Notes under the pieces: model-generated
The model's database searches: none
What the model saw: the letters and a program-made list of their open reading frames with translations, nothing else
What the model was told of the DNA's origin: nothing
Part shown: positions 36,225-43,800 of the stretch, piece by piece
How the letters are laid out: each line of letters opens with the position of its first letter
Position numbering within the stretch: the first letter of the stretch is position 1
Translations under genes and position numbers: made by a program
Assembly (NCBI RefSeq): GCF_050320075.1
Contig: NZ_CP190018.1
Source of the DNA: Escherichia coli
GTDB taxonomy: Bacteria > Pseudomonadota > Gammaproteobacteria > Enterobacterales > Enterobacteriaceae
Direction: 5' to 3' (one strand)
Length of the DNA stretch: 64,000 nt

Positions 36225-37061
36225 TAATAATTGTCTATAGCTATCTTCTTAGCGATGTCTTTCTGGTATCACATTGGATCGGTGCAATTATTTTTCCTTT
36301 AATACCCATTATGTTAAGAAATTCAGAAACAGCTGTAATCTCATTGTTTTTTTCATTCGTCTTGATCTTCCAAGGAATCTGACTGTGCATTATTGAGAAC
36401 ACACTAATAACGTGAATCGCTCCCTTGCGACGACTCTTGTCATAAGAGTACCGGAGCGTTTTTCCATCAATTGCAATGACGTCTTTATCATCTGAAGAAT
36501 GGCAGTCAAGCATCCAGTTAATAAAGCACTCATAAAATTTTTCAGGACTGATACAGGATACAACTCTGGCAATGGTATCGTGAACAGGAATACCATTATC
36601 AAAATCACCATATTGCTTCAAAAAATCGAGATGTGTTTCCCCAAAATCCTCTATATCTTCCCAGCCTTCTGCACCCGAAATAACGGCACAAATAGTCAAC
36701 AGTAGAATATCCGATAATTTATGTTCCACTTTCCAGGCTTGTCTGTAATCGGGGATAATAGAAATATGTCCCATCAATTTTTTAAGTTCCATTTTGTTCT
36801 CCTTAATTATGTAAGGAGTATTTGATCATGTATACGCAATAAAAAACAGCTTCAGGTAATGAGGAATATCTCAATTGTTAAACATAAAATGCGAATTGTC
36901 TAGTACAAAAAAGCAGCGTTACGTGATCTTTCCGTGGATCGTCAAATTGTTCGAGAGAAAATACCAACATGATGGATTTTACTGTAAAAGTAATGTCGTA
37001 GTTTAAAAACTCATCATCCGGTAAAGCCTTGTGGGGCGTGGGCTTTCATACTTTTACCCTG
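36225..37061 (-). mobile_element. H-repeat / ISAs1-family element, 3'-truncated remnant
   Basis: The outer end ...GGGCTTTCATACTTTTACCCTG at 37061 matches the inverted repeat of the complete copy at 43800. The transposase frame degenerates after about residue 165, and homology (…QKDIAKKI in a shifted frame) stops near 36225. Confidence 0.75.
36241..36792 (-). pseudogene. ydcC: H-repeat (ISAs1-family, DDE) transposase N-terminal fragment
   Basis: [62 protein letters not shown]... The 183 aa compare with about 378 aa for a full-length H-rpt protein. The end is frameshifted. Confidence 0.8.
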
Positions 37062-37377
37062 ATGTCTGCTATACGCCGGACACCCTTTACGTAGCATTCG
37101 GAATTCACCCGTAAATTTATCACGGCGGTATCACGAAACCTCCGGTTCTGATGCCGCTTAGGACTAACGACACGTCAACACAGGTTCGGGTTTATTCATT
37201 TCACTGTATCTCATATAATCTGAGCACTCCCCCTGCGCTCGCTACTATGACTCTTTACCACAGCAACCGGGGTTGTTTGGGATCGGCTTTCAACAGCAGA
37301 TCCCGGTGGCTATTGCAAGTAAGTCTACTTTCCACATCAGTGTTACTGACACAGAAAATAATGAGTTATGATCCTTG

Positions 37378-37863
37378 TCATATTTTTAATATAGCCCCAT
37401 GAGCTATAGGATCAAAACCTTCTAACCATGAGGTGTTTTTATCGAATAATGCATCTGTTATATTTATATCGCCATATCTATCACATAATAAATTAGCGCC
37501 ACATAAGTCAGCACCAGAAAAATTTGAATCTTTAACGTCTGCATTGCAAAAGGTTGAATTAGTTAATATAGCACCCTCAAAGTTTGCACCTATTGACCTT
37601 GAATTACTAAAGTCACTTCCAGTGAAATCTGAGTTATTAAGAATAGCGTTCATCAGAGCCGCATTGCGAAAGACAGCATTTCTAGTTGATGTATGTTGAA
37701 TCATTACATTTCTTAAATGGGAATTTTCAAATTTCGCCCCATCAAGACAATAACCATTGAGGATGGCACGATGTAGATCCATCCCGCTAAAATCATATCC
37801 AGCAAGAGTGGTACTATCTATATCAAGAAATTTATTGGTTATTAAAAACGCGATTCTTATCAT
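37378..37863 (-). CDS. ydcD: Pentapeptide-repeat protein, candidate RhsE immunity protein
   Basis: A 161-aa ORF with about 20 consecutive A(D/N)LXX-type pentads ([30 protein letters not shown] ... [10 protein letters not shown]). Its ATG overlaps the rhsE stop (ATGA). Confidence 0.85.
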
Positions 37864-40800
37864 CTATTCCCCCAATCATCTAACTCCGGAAAAATTTGGC
37901 TAAACGGATATAGTGGTGCCGATAATGGACGCGTACCTGGCCGCTCAGGAGGAAGTTTATCACATAACAGACCCGCAACCATCCTGTGATTACCATTAAC
38001 AATCACATTCCCATCCATATCAACCGGTGGTGCTCCACTACCATCTTCCAGCATTTGTACGTAGTGAGCTACTACGGGTACTGAGACTTTTTGTTGTACT
38101 GTCAACAAGGGACTGTTGGCCACAACCATCCTGATGTTTTCAGGTGTCGTAGGTAAACATTTAGTCTTCTCTTGACTAAAGGTATCATCCCACAATTTTG
38201 TTAAACCCATCACTGCCTGTTGTCTGTATTTATCCATGGGGTCAGCAATCAACCAAGATGGACCTGACTGCTCTATGGAATCTTCTCCGGAGAGACCCAA
38301 CGGATCTATCTTAGTAGTTGGATTCAATGGATACTGATACAGGTTCCATGCACCTCTTAGCCCAATGGGATCCTGGGTGATATACCGCCCCTGCAACGGG
38401 TCATAGTACCGGTTGCGGTTATAGTACAGCCCCGACTCCTCATCATACTGCTGCCCCGGCAGACGGTACGGCTGTTGCAGTTGCTGCGCGCTGGTTTCGC
38501 CCAGCAGGTTTCCCCACTCGTCATACTCCCCCTGCCACGCCGTTTCCCCTTCCGGGCTGATGAGCGCCTGCGGCAGCCCCCGGTGGTCGCAGTGGTAAAG
38601 ATGAAGTGTCCTCTCCGGGATGTATTCCGCCTCCATCTGGTTTTTCATCTGTTCCGCCGTCAGCCCGCACTGCTGAAGCCATGCCTCACTCTCCGCACTC
38701 ACCGCACCCGCGCGCAGTTCCCGCTCCAGCCTCCCCAGCATCACCGACAGCTCCGCCGGTAGCGTCACCCCCGTGTCCTCCTGCAACACCTCCGCCAGAC
38801 TCCGGTGCCGCGCCTTCGCCTGTTCACCATTCTCTGTTTCGATTCTGATGAGCGGCGTGAAGCTCCCCGGCTGGTATACCGTCTGGATACGCGTGGTGCC
38901 GGTCTGTACCGTCGTCAGCCTGTCACCGTCCCACCCGTACCAGGTCTCCTCCGGTTTACGCGACAGCGACATCCACCCCGTCAGGTCACGCTCCCGCCGC
39001 CACACCCGTTTCCCCGTCCGGCGGCCCAGCGGGTCATAGAGGTAGCGGCTCTCCACCTGTGGCTCGCCGTGCTGTATCCGCGTGTAGAACACCAGGCGGT
39101 GCTGGCTGTCGTAATGGTAGTGGTGCGTCCGCTCGTCGTGCATCCGTATCACCCCTTCCGGGATACGGTCCGTCTTCTCCGCCAGCCTGCCGTATTCATC
39201 GTAGCGGTAGACATAGTGCGCATCTTCCGTGATGCGGTTATCCGGCCACGCCGTGAAGGTGCTGTCCGGGTGCAGTTCCGGGTCCGGCAGCCGGTTTCCT
39301 GCCGGGTCCGTCGCATACGGGATATCGATATCCAGGTTCGCCGCCGTGGTGTGAACGCCCGTCAGTCTTCCCGTGTCGCTGTAACGGTACTTCCGGCTCT
39401 CCTGCGGGCCGCTGATGCGCACCAGTTGCCCGTTATCGTTCCACGTATACTCACGGTCAAGCTGCGGAAGGTTCAGGTGCCTGCTCCGGAGCTGCCCTGT
39501 GAGGGTGTACGCCGTGGCCTGTTCGTACCCCGCTGTACTGCCCGCCCCGCCGAAGCTGCGGGCCGTCTCACGGTGCAGCCGGTCCCGCGTGTACTCGACC
39601 AGCGGCGTTCCGCCCAGCTTCATCCCCGCAAGATAACCGCTGCCATACGTCAGCCACTCCACCGGCGGCAGACCGTCCGGCTCCTGACGGGTCGCCAGCC
39701 CCTGTTCGCTGTAGACGTGCCTCGTCTCATGCTCCCACAGCATCTCCCCCGTCTCCTGGTTCTCCACCGTCTGCCGTTCGCCCGTCAGGCGGCCTTTATC
39801 GTCATAGCCGTAGTGGACCGCCACACGGTGGCCTTCGCTCAGGTGGCTGATTTCTGTCAGCCAGCCGTGGTCGTCATACTGCCACTGCTCCGCCGGGTCG
39901 CCGTTCACCGTCCGGTGCGTGATGCGCCCGGCGTCATCGTAGTACCACTGCGTGACCTGCCCCTCATCCTCGCTGCGGATGAGCTGCCCTGTGGCGCTGT
40001 ACCGGTAACGCTGTGTCCTGCCGTCAAAGCCGCGCTGCTCCGTCAGCCTGTCCACCGGGTCATACCGGAACGTGGACTGGCTGCCGTTCTCGTTGGTCAG
40101 CACGGTGATGCGCCCGGCGGCGTCATACTCCATGCTGCGCGTCAGTCCGCCCTGCGTGGTGCTGACGGCCTTTCCCCACGCATCATACTGTGTCTCACTC
40201 CGGCTGCCGTTCGGGGCAATGATAGCGGTGAGGTCGCCTGCGGCGCTGTACTCATAACGGGTTTCACGTCCCTGCGCATCCTTCTGACTGACCAGTTGAC
40301 CACGCGGGTTATAACTGCTGTAAGTGCTGATGCCTTCCTCCCGGTGAACCGCCGTCCTCTGACCGTACCGGTCGTATTCATACCGCGTCGTGTACCCTGA
40401 ACAGTCCGTAAATGCCTGAAGCTGACCGTACCGGTTTCGCGTTATTCTCCGCCTCACCCCGGTTCCGTCTTCCACCGCACAGGGCAGGCCACTGCGGGAA
40501 GAATCATAAAACCAGCGCGTAATGTTACCGTTGCGCGAGACCTCTTCCGCCAGCCTGCCCTGACGGTCATATTTCCGGCTGCGGCGCAGCCCGTCCGGGT
40601 ACGTCACTGACGTCAGTTGCAACTGGTTGTTGTAACCATACCGTACCGTCCTGCCGTCCGGCAGTATCACTGAAGTCAGCTTTCCCGACGCCATATGCAG
40701 CCGGTACTCCGTCCGCCGTCCCGCCGCATCCGTCTGCGCCTTCAGCCTCCCCGCCTCATCATACTCGCTGCGGGTGATGCTCCCGTCCCCATACTCCTTC

Positions 40801-42071
40801 TTCACCACCCGCTTCAGGCCGCCCTCGCCCTCCGTGTACAGCACCTCCCGCCGGTTCAGGCTGTCCGTGATGGTCACGCGGTCCTGCCCGTACTCAAAGC
40901 GGTAGTCCAGCCCCTCCGGGTTGACCTGCTCCGTCACCCGACCGGTATCATCATACCGGTAGCGGCTCTCCGGCCTCCCCGCATAATGGTGCGCCACCAT
41001 CCGCCCGGCGTGCTCCGCATCATAAGTAAACCCGCGCACCTGCGTCCCGCTGCGGTCATACACCGCCCGCAGTTCTCCGCTGGCCGTGTACGTGTAGCGC
41101 GCCAGCGGCGCAGTCGGCAGTTCATCCGGGTATGCCGGGTCGTGTGTCAGCCATACCGCCTCCAGCCGGATACCGTTATCGGCACCGTACTCTGTACCGG
41201 TGGGCAGCGTGTCGGGGAAAAACTGAGAAGAGGAAACAGAACGGGGACTGGCCGGAGAAGATAAAGAAGACTCGCGCTGTTTACGGAAGGCTTTCGCCCG
41301 CTGCGCCTGTGTGGTCAGCGCCAGATGAAAACGGCGGCCCGCGCCGTCCGTCACCCCCGTCACCGCGCCCGCCGCTTCCCCCTCTGCCGCCCGGTGGAAG
41401 GCCAGCGTCCGCCCGAAGCCGTCCACCACGCCCGTCAGCACCCGGTATGCGGGCGGCTCCGGCGGCAGCACCTCGTCCGCCTCCGGCACCCGCTCCGGCC
41501 AGCCGAGTATCCACCACGGCCCCTGAAGGCTGTTTGTCGCCAGGTACACATGCGGGCTTAAGCGGAGACTCTCCGGCAGCACCTGCCAGAGCGCGCTTAG
41601 CGGCTGCGAACTGTGCTGCTCCGCCACCCCGCCCCTTGCCAGCCAGAACGACTCGCTGCGGCTGTAGCTTATCTCGCCGGGAAACAGCGGCTCAAAGTGA
41701 ATGCTCCTGCCGCCACTGTCGTTGAGTATCAGTTCCCGCTCATGAACCTGTAAGCGGATATCGAAGGGCGCTTTCCAGCCGGGACCAAACACCCCCACCG
41801 GCGCGGGTGTCCTGGTCCGGTAGCTGCTGTAGGCGCGGGAAAGAATAAACGGCAACGGGCCGGGCAGCGCAAGATCCGTCTCGCCCGGCAGCACCTTCGC
41901 ACCCAGTAGCGGGTTCACCGGGTTACCCTTCTGCTCCTCCACCGGGCTGTTGGGACACACCGAGCAGGCCACTCCCGTCGGCGCACCTATCAGCACCCCC
42001 GCTGAACCCTGCACAATATCCAGTCCCTTGCGGGTCATATCGCCCTGTCGCGCCGCCGGTTTTCCGCTCAT
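37860..42071 (-). CDS. rhsE: Full-length Rhs polymorphic toxin (N-terminal PAAR-like domain, YD-repeat shell, variable C-terminal toxin tip)
   Basis: A 1403-aa protein starting [16 protein letters not shown]...[12 protein letters not shown]. It has many YD/RY repeats, and the core ends at ...[39 protein letters not shown]. The core is GC-rich, and the last roughly 430 nt are AT-rich. Confidence 0.93.
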
Positions 42072-42090: not shown

Positions 42091-42282
42091 TTATGGTTTT
42101 ATTCTGAGTGCAATCCATACTGATTCATAACCAGTGAATAAGATTTCCCCGAATAATCTATATAAATTAGCGAAGTCCTCTTCACTAATTAACCGTAAAA
42201 TCCCGTACCAATGAAATATAAAAATAACCACCCACACAAATTTATTGCAAATATTATTTATTATTGTATATACATCATTCAC
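42091..42282 (-). CDS. yncH: Small hydrophobic protein upstream of rhsE
   Basis: A 63-aa ORF, MNDVYTIINNICNKFVWVVIFIFHWYGILRL..., ending 19 nt before the rhsE ATG. The K-12 positional equivalent is yncH. Whether it is really coding is uncertain. Confidence 0.55.
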   Translation of the reverse strand: MNDVYTIINNICNKFVWVVIFIFHWYGILRLISEEDFANLYRLFGEILFTGYESVWIALRIKP

Positions 42283-42482
42283 TGAACGTTCTCAAACTGC
42301 ATACCTTAGAACCATCAATTAAAGCCACAACAAAAAAAATCGATTACTTTATGTCGCATGACAAATATGAATTACATATTAATCAACCTTAAAAACAATC
42401 ATCTCTTATAATTAACAGCATACCATGAGAAACACAAAATCAATTTACCATGCATACCAGGAGCATAATTAACCTCTCACCG

Positions 42483-43800
42483 CAGGGCGAAATCATGAAG
42501 GCCCGCAGCCAGCAAGGATTAGAGAAAGGTATTCATTCTTACGTCCTGCCCGCTTTTGCTTGCGTTTAATACCCGCTTTAAAGCTATTCTCTGCGGTCAG
42601 TAAATTCATCGCGATATGTCGACAAACTGCCAGATTTTCTCCCGCTTCTCCACGAACAATCTGGCATTCATCTTCCCGCATCCCCATATCAAGTCGCCAG
42701 TGCAGTTGATTTTCTACCGACCAGTGTGCTCGTGTTGCTTCCAGGAGTTCTTTCGCCGTAAGCGTCACCGAACTTATGTAGTAGCGAAGAATACACTTCT
42801 CTGATTTCACCGCTGTTTCTCCTTCCTGTCTGCTCGCCAGCACTATTCCTATCGTGCTCAGCTCTGACCATTCATAAGCTAAATCACCCAGAGCGGTTAA
42901 ATCATGGCTCACAATGCAGCATCGTGTATCTTCCCGTCCATGCCCTTTTTCCTGCGTGCTGTAACTGTCATACCTCTCACCCAGCCACATTGTCGGCGAG
43001 TACCCGTTATCAAACGCCTCCGCTAATTTTCCCTGATTTCCTTTCAGCGCCAGCAGGTAACCGGCTTTCTTTTTCAGAATTTCACGGGCGATTATATGCT
43101 GGCAACCCATTGCATCCAGCGTGACCAGACACCCTTTTAATTCCAGCAACTGGAGCCGTTCCGGGATCGCCGTTATCTCATTCGATTTTGCCCCTGTTTT
43201 CACCTGCCCCAAAACCAGACGATTTTCTGCGCTAAAAGCACTGACCCTATGGATCACGGCATTACGTTTCGATTTATCGTAAGTACCCCGTAATGACTTA
43301 CCATCAATCGCCACAACAGAGCCTTCAGACAACGTGTGACAGTCCTTCATCTACTGGATAAAAAGGGGCTGTAATTGTTTTGCTGAAATCATTCCCATCA
43401 CTCGGGCAATCGTGTGATGGGAGGGGGTGCCATTTTCAAAATCACCATACAGGCGTAACCATTCCAGATGCTCCTCACCAAAATCAGCAATTTCTTCCCA
43501 TCCTTCAGCGCCACCGATAATGGCGGTGATCGTCAGAAAAAGGATATCCGCCAGGCTGTAACTGGTTTTCCAGGACTGGCGATAATCGTGAATAATTGAA
43601 ATTTGATCCAAAAGGCTTAGTCCGTTCATGGTGTGCTATCCATCAAAAAGAAAGGATAAGATCACACTGAAATAAGATGGTCAAATTGATCGAAAAAAAA
43701 GATCAACATGATGGGTTTTACGATAAAAGTAATGTCGCGATTTAAAAATTCATCATTCACCAAAGTCTTGTGGGGCGCGGGCTTTCATGCTTTTTCCCTG
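42483..43800 (-). mobile_element. Complete H-repeat / ISAs1-family element (1318 bp)
   Basis: It has imperfect 24-bp terminal inverted repeats. One is CAGGGCGAAATCATGAAGGCCCGC at 42483. The other, the reverse complement of 43777..43800, is CAGGGAAAAAGCATGAAAGCCCGC. No clear target duplication was found. Confidence 0.8.
42493..43629 (-). pseudogene. ISAs1-family transposase interrupted by one in-frame amber codon
   Basis: Track ORFs 43351..43629 and 42493..43350 are contiguous in one frame: ...QLQPLFIQ-TAG-MKDCHTLSEGSVVAIDGKSLRG. The remnant copy has W at the equivalent position (FINWMLDCH), which implies TGG to TAG. Confidence 0.85.

Follow-up and report, generated by a model that had tools for sequence, protein, structure and literature searches.

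What does the C-terminal tip of an Rhs protein do when the gene behind it encodes a pentapeptide-repeat protein, and is that protein its immunity partner? Such an arrangement lies in Escherichia coli (NCBI RefSeq assembly GCF_050320075.1, contig NZ_CP190018.1), in a stretch of 64,000 nucleotides that was analysed as a whole and is called the window here. An intact Rhs polymorphic toxin gene, with DUF6531, RHS repeats, an RHS core and a variable tip, occupies 37860..42071 on the minus strand (1403 aa plus stop; open reading frame (ORF) list, translation and Pfam). It is followed on the same strand by the gene for a 161-aa pentapeptide-repeat protein (37378..37863), a candidate immunity gene by its overlap with the Rhs stop, its Pfam matches and its conserved pairing. 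Our analysis indicates that the tip and the 161-aa protein very probably constitute a toxin/immunity module.

The anatomy of the locus was examined first at the core/tip boundary. Pfam matched the 1403-aa protein with RHS_repeat (1e-76, 13 stretches), DUF6531 (1e-18) and the RHS core (3.8e-14). We take its N-terminus to be PAAR-like, as in other E. coli Rhs proteins; Pfam gave no PAAR match. The core ends in a PxxxxDPxGL motif at residues 1251-1260 (38292..38321, minus strand; translation and coordinates), with the last Leu, residue 1260, at nt 38292. The guanine-plus-cytosine (GC) content begins to drop at this motif, from 0.61-0.68 in the Rhs core (38400-41900) to 0.33-0.46 across the tip and the downstream ORF (37350-38400), and the remaining residues, 1261-1403, form a tip of 143 aa. 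The TGA stop of the Rhs gene shares the four letters ATGA (37860-37863) with the ATG of the ORF 37378..37863. An earlier note on this DNA, written from the letters without database searches, had described the core-terminating motif, the drop in composition, the 143-aa tip and the ATGA overlap, and all four were found as described. The characters that define Rhs/RhsI modules, namely RHS/YD repeats, a PxxxxDPxGL core end, a compositionally distinct tip and a small tightly linked gene, are all present. The tip plus ORF occurred at ≥99% identity in 143 of 5426 complete E. coli genomes, chromosomal in every case, while a query that included core sequence matched 1561 E. coli genomes. RefSeq labels the two proteins only as 'RHS element core protein' and 'pentapeptide repeat-containing protein'.

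Homologues of the tip were found with phmmer, run exhaustively against 1.84 billion cluster representatives, which was needed since a word-indexed homology search with the tip alone returned only 2 fragments. The search yielded 329 representatives of clusters at 50% identity with E≤1e-3, of which 117 had E≤1e-10. The matches always covered tip residues ~44 to 143 and always lay at the C-terminus of the matched protein. They began at tip residue 40-48 in nearly all cases, which separates an unconserved linker of 43 aa (residues 1261-1303; 38163..38291, minus strand) from a toxin domain of 100 aa (residues 1304-1403; 37863..38162, minus strand). This domain is the common C-terminal part of carriers with RHS repeats and core, PT-HINT (pretoxin-HINT), DUF637 haemagglutinin or SpvB/TcdB regions. 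One carrier also has an Ntox10 domain and hence two toxin domains in one protein; AXH-like modules occur in two others, and in several, TPR regions take the place of RHS at the N-terminus. A scan of one genome per species gave 118 toxin loci in Enterobacterales, Neisseria, Pseudomonas, Burkholderiales, Rhizobiales, Myxococcota, Bacteroidota, Bacillota, Actinomycetota, Cyanobacteria, Verrucomicrobiota, Chloroflexota and others. Searches of Pfam, NCBIfam and PDB sequences (phmmer) with the tip gave no match, and neither Pfam nor NCBIfam has a model for this family, which is spread over many phyla and occurs in 143 complete E. coli genomes. One member is named 'ParB/Sulfiredoxin domain-containing protein' in UniRef.

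The near-invariant polar residues of the family lie in two short segments. The consensus reads T-x-Q-x-x-V-S-x-P-x-V-Q-x-Y-V-x-x-I-E-x-G-x-x-x-P-P-I-K-V-D-G-N-x-I-V-D-G-N-H-R-Y-I-A-G ... P-G-T ... D-x-x-D-W-G-N. By column counts over 136 toxins, Q1326 (133) and S1330 (134) are near-invariant and lie just before helix 1, at the two ends of the segment QQKVS (residues 1326 to 1330; 38082..38096, minus strand). The second segment is G1360-N1361-H1362-R1363 at the start of helix 2 (37983..37994, minus strand), the GNHR motif that had been read in the tip before any homologue was known. Its residues are kept in 135, 116, 135 and 131 toxins, respectively, with His in place of N1361 in 12. The residue before G-N-H-R varies among D, E and N. 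By column counts and alignment register, this segment corresponds to GCHR of sulfiredoxin and GERR of ParB.

The fold of the toxin domain was modelled with AlphaFold. A single-sequence model of the tip was useless (predicted local distance difference test score, pLDDT, 37.6) and a family alignment was needed; with 60 sequences aligned, the toxin domain reached a pLDDT of 96.5 and a predicted template modelling score (pTM) of 0.89. The model comprises a strand (25-27), a helix (28-39), two strands (47-50 and 53-56), a helix (58-66) and a strand (73-75), that is, a beta-alpha-beta-beta-alpha core, and a Pro-rich tail ending in DDWGNR. The order of the secondary-structure elements is that of sulfiredoxin. 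The structural neighbours of the model were, in order and with their scores, SbnI (5ujd, 5.4), Atu1540 (2hwj, 5.4), plant sulfiredoxin (6ky4, 5.4), Spo0J (1vz0, 5.3), a free serine kinase (5x0b, 5.2), PadC (6ryk, 4.8), KorB (8qa8, 4.8) and human sulfiredoxin (1yzs, 4.8). All eight are proteins of the ParB/sulfiredoxin (Srx) fold, and the GNHR segment thus lies in a ParB-like fold in the model, a point on which the earlier note had staked its reading. A Foldseek search against the PDB, which that note had also proposed, placed 2hwj, the pNOB8 ParB-N domain and sulfiredoxin at ranks 2, 4 and 5, with non-significant E-values.

Profile comparison placed the motif in register with those of sulfiredoxin and ParB. 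With hhalign, the toxin segment PVVQxYV...PPI...GNHRY-A was aligned onto AKVQSLV...PPI...GCHRYAA of sulfiredoxin (P=1.4e-3), and a 17-residue segment around GNHR onto KGYDIVAGERRFRAAKL of Spo0J, with GNHR on GERR (P about 1e-2); the reference sequences are identical to PDB entries 1yzs and 6sdk, respectively. Since each template was a single sequence, hhalign assigned only low probabilities (17% and 4%). The core that defines the ParB/Srx superfamily is superposable, and the Gly-x-x-Arg motif stands at the junction of strand 3 and helix 2, while the curated models of the superfamily did not recognise the domain. It is by fold plus motif only that the model would place the toxin with ParB. On these grounds we predict with good confidence that the tip domain adopts the ParB/Srx fold, as had been proposed from the motif. 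In our reading, it may represent a divergent, minimal, sulfiredoxin-sized branch that retains the phosphate-binding G-x-H-R and is devoid of the helix-turn-helix (HTH) and the cytidine triphosphate (CTP) hydrolysis motifs of true ParB.

The partner is a pentapeptide-repeat protein in nearly its entire length. Pfam Pentapeptide (PF00805) matched it with E=1.4e-19 and 69.7 bits (cut-off 20.2), and Pentapeptide_4 and Pentapeptide_3 also matched. Register analysis showed an unbroken run of ~25 pentapeptides in one register at residues 18-142 (37438..37812, minus strand); the run had been recognised earlier as uninterrupted, and its estimate of about 20 repeats was slightly low. Beyond the repeats, the family is marked by an N-cap M-I-x-I-x-x-E-T-G-E, an LMNA coil and a C-cap T-x-W-P-x-G-F-D-P. 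Three basic residues within 37711..37773 (minus strand) are outward-facing and invariant or nearly so by counts over 53 family members: H31 (53/53) and R32 (49/53), encoded at 37768-37773, and R51 (53/53) at 37711-37713. H31/R32 and R51 are exactly one coil (20 residues) apart and should therefore stack along one edge of the beta-helix, where they could serve as a contact surface. The protein as a whole is acidic, with a family median isoelectric point (pI) of 4.8 and a charge of -7 (about -6 for the protein in the window), and the toxin domains are near neutral with a median pI of 8.0. As read from the sequence, the partner carries no signal peptide, so the target of the toxin should be cytoplasmic.

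The likeness of the partner to known pentapeptide proteins is mostly that of the repeat itself. Its scores fell far below the NCBIfam cut-offs for MfpA (34.3 bits against 360), Qnr (33.2 against 240) and QnrB (33.4 against 460), and its nearest relatives are cyanobacterial pentapeptide proteins of unassigned role. The label 'DNA-mimic class' that had been given to it is weakened by these widely missed cut-offs and by the basic nature of its invariant outward residues, though the protein is acidic. The C-cap T[VIT]WPxGFDP is common to hundreds of otherwise unrelated pentapeptide proteins of 170 to over 1000 aa (loci L097-L162), with more than 600 metagenome stretches, as a lower bound, matching the motif, and seems to cap the C-terminus of this class of repeats in general. 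In Neisseria and Aggregatibacter (L003:615-1040, L005, L004:3580-4130 and L059), the partners are divergent and Cys-rich, with repeats such as FxNCxF, a longer helical-looking N-terminal extension and FHR at the LHRA position; they still match the pentapeptide family.

The pairing of toxin and partner was surveyed from both sides. Among 80 genomic loci of the toxin, 76 have an ORF beginning within ~250 nt of the toxin stop, and in 61 of these 76 (80%) the product is homologous to the 161-aa pentapeptide protein. The paired loci span Proteobacteria, Bacteroidota, Bacillota, Actinomycetota, Verrucomicrobiota, Cyanobacteria and others. The reverse search was made in metagenomes with the C-cap motif, a first partner alignment having been too diverse for a metagenome scan. 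Among the matches listed, 21 metagenomic loci have a ParB-like toxin directly upstream of the pentapeptide gene; the pentapeptide proteins of these loci are all 155-170 aa long, and all but one match the query from the first residues. Longer or generic pentapeptide proteins were never behind the toxin among these matches. Three pentapeptide proteins of the family type (L098-L100) have no upstream toxin, and one of them follows an insertion sequence (IS)-related ATPase gene. The synteny of toxin and pentapeptide gene across phyla argues for a genuine conserved toxin/immunity pair; the association is reciprocal, in line with the Rhs-CT/immunity-type module with a pentapeptide partner that had been proposed from this one locus.

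Toxin and partner also vary together. The identities of the two proteins were correlated over 63 non-redundant pairs (Mantel test, r=0.69), and 0 of 999 permutations reached this value. The co-variation shows co-inheritance and does not separate direct binding from target protection. A decayed partner copy of 281 nt and 95% identity was found downstream of rhsA in E. coli strain elppa4 (L082:7001-7362), with NTF2-fold, DUF6258 and Imm57 immunity genes as neighbours; this position in the rhsA array is where orphan immunity genes accumulate. The 143 genomes with the toxin match the partner at a second place as well, and in 132 further E. coli genomes the remnant in the rhsA array is the only match.

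The toxin loci without a pentapeptide partner are informative as well. Toxin subclades that end in ...L-x-I-Q-P and do not have the D-W-G-N tail precede non-pentapeptide genes. These encode a protein of 113-117 aa with no Pfam match, judged helical from its sequence (L006 and L050), or an HAD-like protein of 118-122 aa (L011, L038 at 330-690, and L073, plus L072 after a divergent toxin; two phyla). The HAD-like proteins carry the motifs VDVDDT, WSSGG, LPKP and DDQ (DxDxT, S, K, DD) and match TIGR01684 viral phosphatase with 1.6e-6; two of the four genes overlap the toxin stop by 4 nt. DUF6896 proteins stand behind a DGHHR toxin subclade (L042:4180-4720 and L070:4225-4770), and a leucine-rich repeat (LRR) protein stands behind the toxin at L047:4250-5050. 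The differing partners suggest that the toxin family exchanged immunity families several times. A D-[WYF] tail of the toxin was associated with a pentapeptide partner (49 to 11 versus 5 to 8, odds ratio 7.1, p=0.003), in loci that are not phylogenetically independent. Such tracking of toxin subclade by partner type is predicted by toxin-specific binding and fits generic shielding of one shared target less easily.

How the pair would work can be proposed from these data, and we slightly favour the following account as a whole. The tip would be released after DPLGL and delivered into neighbouring cells. In their cytoplasm, the Q/S/N-H-R site of the ParB/Srx-like domain would bind either a nucleotide or the phosphate of a nucleic acid. 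The toxin domain would then damage an essential phosphate-containing cytoplasmic substrate, for which DNA or RNA is the leading guess. The co-translated 161-aa beta-helix would bind the toxin directly, roughly 1:1, block its substrate face and protect the producer; of the two routes to immunity, direct binding is the probable one and target protection a rather unlikely one. An acidic pentapeptide rod is loosely compatible with a substrate site shaped for nucleic acid.

Several observations weigh against this account. The profile of the toxin family gave only chance matches to PDB sequences, such as CNOT4 and SRP54 (E>0.1), and no Pfam ParB-clan model matched any of 60 relatives at E≤1, the E. 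coli tip itself matching only ddrB-ParB at E=0.26; on this point, the ParB assignment of the earlier note, which holds for fold and motif, did not extend to the curated models. No column of the toxin family has an invariant acidic residue, and the usual Asp before GNHR is Asn in the E. coli tip, which is unusual for a metal-dependent nuclease. Where members of the ParB/Srx fold are well characterised, they act as nucleoside triphosphate (NTP)-dependent switches or as phosphotransferases rather than as nucleases (Zhang et al. 2012, PMC3482391). The invariant exposed residues of the partner are basic, so conservation does not show simple DNA mimicry. Lastly, no vgrG, eagR or other gene of a type VI secretion system (T6SS) was seen within the 64-kb window, which makes this Rhs 'neighbourless'.

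The chemistry of the tip is the part on which these points bear most. The idea of a nuclease goes back to Zhang et al. 2012 (PMC3482391) and is a tentative one for this tip; that paper itself stresses that ParB was called a nuclease on the strength of a flawed study and that, for the superfamily, no chemistry other than phosphotransfer has been convincingly shown (PMC3482391). An NTP-dependent transferase or NTPase is a comparably tentative proposal. Three points make us lean towards transferase chemistry: no acidic residue is invariant, the structural neighbours include kinases and sulfiredoxin, and some partners are HAD-like. A full alternative can be built on this, in which the tip would be an NTP-dependent phosphotransferase or NTPase (sulfiredoxin, SerK/SbnI-like) instead of a nuclease and would phosphorylate or otherwise modify an essential protein or metabolite or drain a nucleotide pool; the pentapeptide protein would neutralise it by binding, and the HAD phosphatase of the sister clade would reverse the modification. 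The retained nucleotide-phosphate motif suits it, as do the chemistry of the superfamily and the four loci in two phyla with an HAD-motif protein as the next gene. However, there are only four HAD-linked loci, and the mini-HAD family is huge (3149 matches), with three sampled members in contexts without a toxin, so the HAD protein could be a recruited binder and not an enzyme. A second, specific substrate site would also hardly fit into a domain of 100 aa, and any product of the toxin is hypothetical. We regard this alternative as unlikely, albeit the strongest of those considered. From its sequence, the HAD-like partner may provide enzymatic immunity, which, if true, would hint that the toxin makes a phosphoester; we treat this link as a lead, not as evidence. 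A more specific version is doubtful: a minimal sulfiredoxin-like NTP-dependent phosphotransferase acting on an essential cytoplasmic target, clamped by the pentapeptide protein through its His-Arg/Arg ladder, with a mini-HAD phosphatase in the sister clade reversing the modification. Such a clamp on a phosphotransferase toxin, if true, would show pentapeptide repeats in a new role, as inhibitors of a protein.

In the second alternative, the partner would not touch the toxin. It would bind DNA gyrase, topoisomerase IV or another DNA-binding target, as McbG, Qnr and MfpA do, and shield that target from a toxin that would poison or modify it. Binding and protection of gyrase is the only well-studied cellular role of small pentapeptide proteins, and one of them confers self-immunity in the microcin B17 operon (PMC10886550). 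The acidity of the partner, its weak NCBIfam matches with MfpA and Qnr (E about 1e-8) and the occurrence of the pair in Gram-negative and Gram-positive hosts, which fits a universally conserved target, can be added. However, the 33-34 bits against cut-offs of 240-360 reflect mostly the generic repeat, and the Pro/Gly-rich C-terminus T-x-W-P-x-G-F-D-P is, in our judgement, unlikely to form a dimerisation helix of the Qnr/MfpA type. The invariant surface residues of the partner are basic, its family occurs essentially only beside the ParB-like toxin among the matches listed, and toxin subclades with the same catalytic motif and another tail have unrelated partners. Target protection thus seems improbable, and direct binding of the toxin is the reading that we retain for the immunity protein.

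Two further explanations scarcely survive. The pentapeptide protein could assist or chaperone secretion instead of conferring immunity, like the DUF2169-linked ones of T6SS spike clusters, pentapeptide proteins being known T6SS accessory factors (PMC7714669); this is very improbable, given the downstream position with ATGA coupling that is usual for immunity genes, the company that the partner keeps with the toxin domain on any carrier (Rhs, HINT or haemagglutinin) and in Gram-positive hosts, its presence beside orphan toxin fragments, its decayed copy in the orphan-immunity array of E. coli and the fact that no DUF2169 neighbour was seen at the locus. We also rejected as highly improbable that GNHR is a beta-beta-alpha-metal (His-Me finger, HNH-like) nuclease site as in the GH-E Rhs toxins beside YjbI-like pentapeptide proteins, for which the modelled beta-hairpin followed by a helix starting at N-H-R and the reported adjacency in GH-E toxins (Jablonska et al. 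2017, PMC5714182) would speak, since no GH-E- or HNH-type Pfam model matched the tip or its 60 relatives at E≤1 and the structural neighbours are all of the ParB/Srx fold.

The locus in E. coli runs yncE-ansP-yncG ... Rhs, and the module is flanked by yncG and an ISAs1 remnant on one side and by another ISAs1 remnant and a GGDEF gene on the other. The two remnants that bracket it derive from ISAs1-family (H-repeat) transposases: one lies downstream (36242..36792, minus strand), and the other, a pseudogene, lies upstream of the Rhs gene (42493..43629, minus strand), both from the RefSeq annotation of the identical locus and given as context only. The stretch immediately upstream of the Rhs start (42100-42450) is very AT-rich, with a GC content of 0.28. 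A scan of the module for promoters and terminators gave counts no higher than background. Inside the GC-rich Rhs core, an antisense ORF of 531 aa (38805-40400, plus strand) most likely reflects the base composition and does not represent a gene.

The pair lends itself to two questions, namely how ParB-fold toxins act and which molecules pentapeptide repeats are able to bind. The nuclease ability of the ParB/Srx fold is disputed, and the tip offers a compact test case of 100 aa with a mutational handle (H1362/R1363) in a tractable host. If a pentapeptide protein were the cognate immunity to a protein toxin, polymorphic toxin systems would gain a new family of immunity proteins, and a repeat class that is mostly without known function outside gyrase protection would gain a defined binding partner. 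As both proteins are small, toxin sequestration and target protection are directly testable against each other.

Among described systems, the closest kinds to the tip are Tox-ParB and Tox-ParBL1, polymorphic-toxin domains of the ParB fold that were defined in silico only (Zhang, Aravind et al. 2012, Biol Direct 7:18, PMC3482391), and with which we compared it by description only. They share with the tip family the C-terminal position of a ParB-fold domain on RHS, haemagglutinin and HINT carriers and a broad phyletic spread. The Tox-ParB motif is DGHHR (PMC3482391), whereas the tip family has D/E/N-G-N-H-R, with H for N in 12 of 136. ParBL1 has a conserved N-terminal Ser/Thr, as the tip family has S1330 (134/136), but a motif [NT][RT][RT] (PMC3482391) in place of N-H-R. 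The Pfam ParB models miss the tip family. The immunity proteins also differ: Imm20, Imm27 and SuFu are listed for Tox-ParB and SUKH and Imm44 for ParBL1 (PMC3482391), compared with pentapeptide, HAD-like, DUF6896, helical and LRR proteins for the tip family. SUKH and Imm44 were not found among the downstream proteins scanned, and the word 'pentapeptide' is absent from the main text of Zhang et al. 2012 (PMC3482391). A 2025 preprint gave no experiments but described Rhs tips of Pectobacterium as 'DNase containing a ParB motif'; one member of the toxin family is from P. parmentieri, so the tip in that preprint may be the same tip. Our literature search found no experimental characterisation of ParB-fold toxin domains, though they have been on in-silico lists since 2012, and no experimental study of the E. 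coli tip or of pentapeptide immunity to a ParB-like toxin.

The comparison with better-studied members of the fold shows both likeness and loss. Like sulfiredoxin, the tip has a domain of ~100 aa with the beta-alpha-beta-beta-alpha order, and its PPI...G-x-H-R-Y-x-A falls residue for residue on PPIDV...GGCHRYAAY. In contrast, the catalytic Cys of sulfiredoxin is Asn in the tip, the last helices are replaced by the Pro-rich DWGN tail, and the identity to sulfiredoxin and SerK/SbnI is 9-19%. Lys61, Ser64 and Thr68, the ATP ligands of sulfiredoxin, have no conserved equivalents in the tip in the hhalign register. The CTP-dependent clamps ParB, Noc and KorB share the fold of their N-terminal domain and the GxxR phosphate-binding motif (GERR on GNHR), but the tip sits in a toxin context. 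The toxin domain of 100 aa has no room for the HTH, the ENLQR-type hydrolysis motif and the dimerisation domain of ParB.

For the partner, the relevant systems are MfpA, Qnr, McbG and AlbG, which are likewise small and acidic and have the A(D/N)LXX right-handed quadrilateral beta-helix. McbG and AlbG are self-immunity genes beside toxin genes, as the partner gene is beside Rhs. Unlike these proteins, the partner has a specific N-cap (MIxIxxETGE), the H-R/R ladder and an unbroken register without Qnr-type loops, and it goes with a protein toxin, whereas they are set against small-molecule gyrase poisons. Only two mentions of pentapeptide genes beside polymorphic toxins were found in the literature. 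In the first, His-Me finger Rhs toxins of the GH-E type have adjacent YjbI-like pentapeptide genes, and no conventional immunity gene was evident to the authors (Jablonska et al. 2017, PMC5714182). Those toxins have another fold and Pfam family than the tip, and their pentapeptide gene was not read as immunity; the partner subfamily accompanied only the ParB-like toxin in the reverse search, among the matches listed, and the GH-E neighbours were compared by description only. In the second, the Rhs-Ct pair Tse6/Tsi6a of Stenotrophomonas rhizophila combines a C-terminal toxin of unassigned function with a putative immunity protein that structurally resembles a pentapeptide-annotated protein; Tse6 orthologues occur on several secretion carriers, and a competition phenotype was attributed to the effector (bioRxiv 10.64898/2026.07.13.738213). 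By description, Tse6 is rare, occurring in 37 strains with their centre in saline Actinomycetes and Planctomycetes, in contrast to the broad tip family, and the preprint (10.64898/2026.07.13.738213) gives Tse6 no ParB/Srx assignment, unlike that of the tip. Set beside these systems, the Rhs module of the window is an ordinary one, the toxin domain is probably an unmodelled branch of the ParB/Srx fold and the pentapeptide partner would be an uncatalogued immunity type, and nothing in them overturns current understanding.

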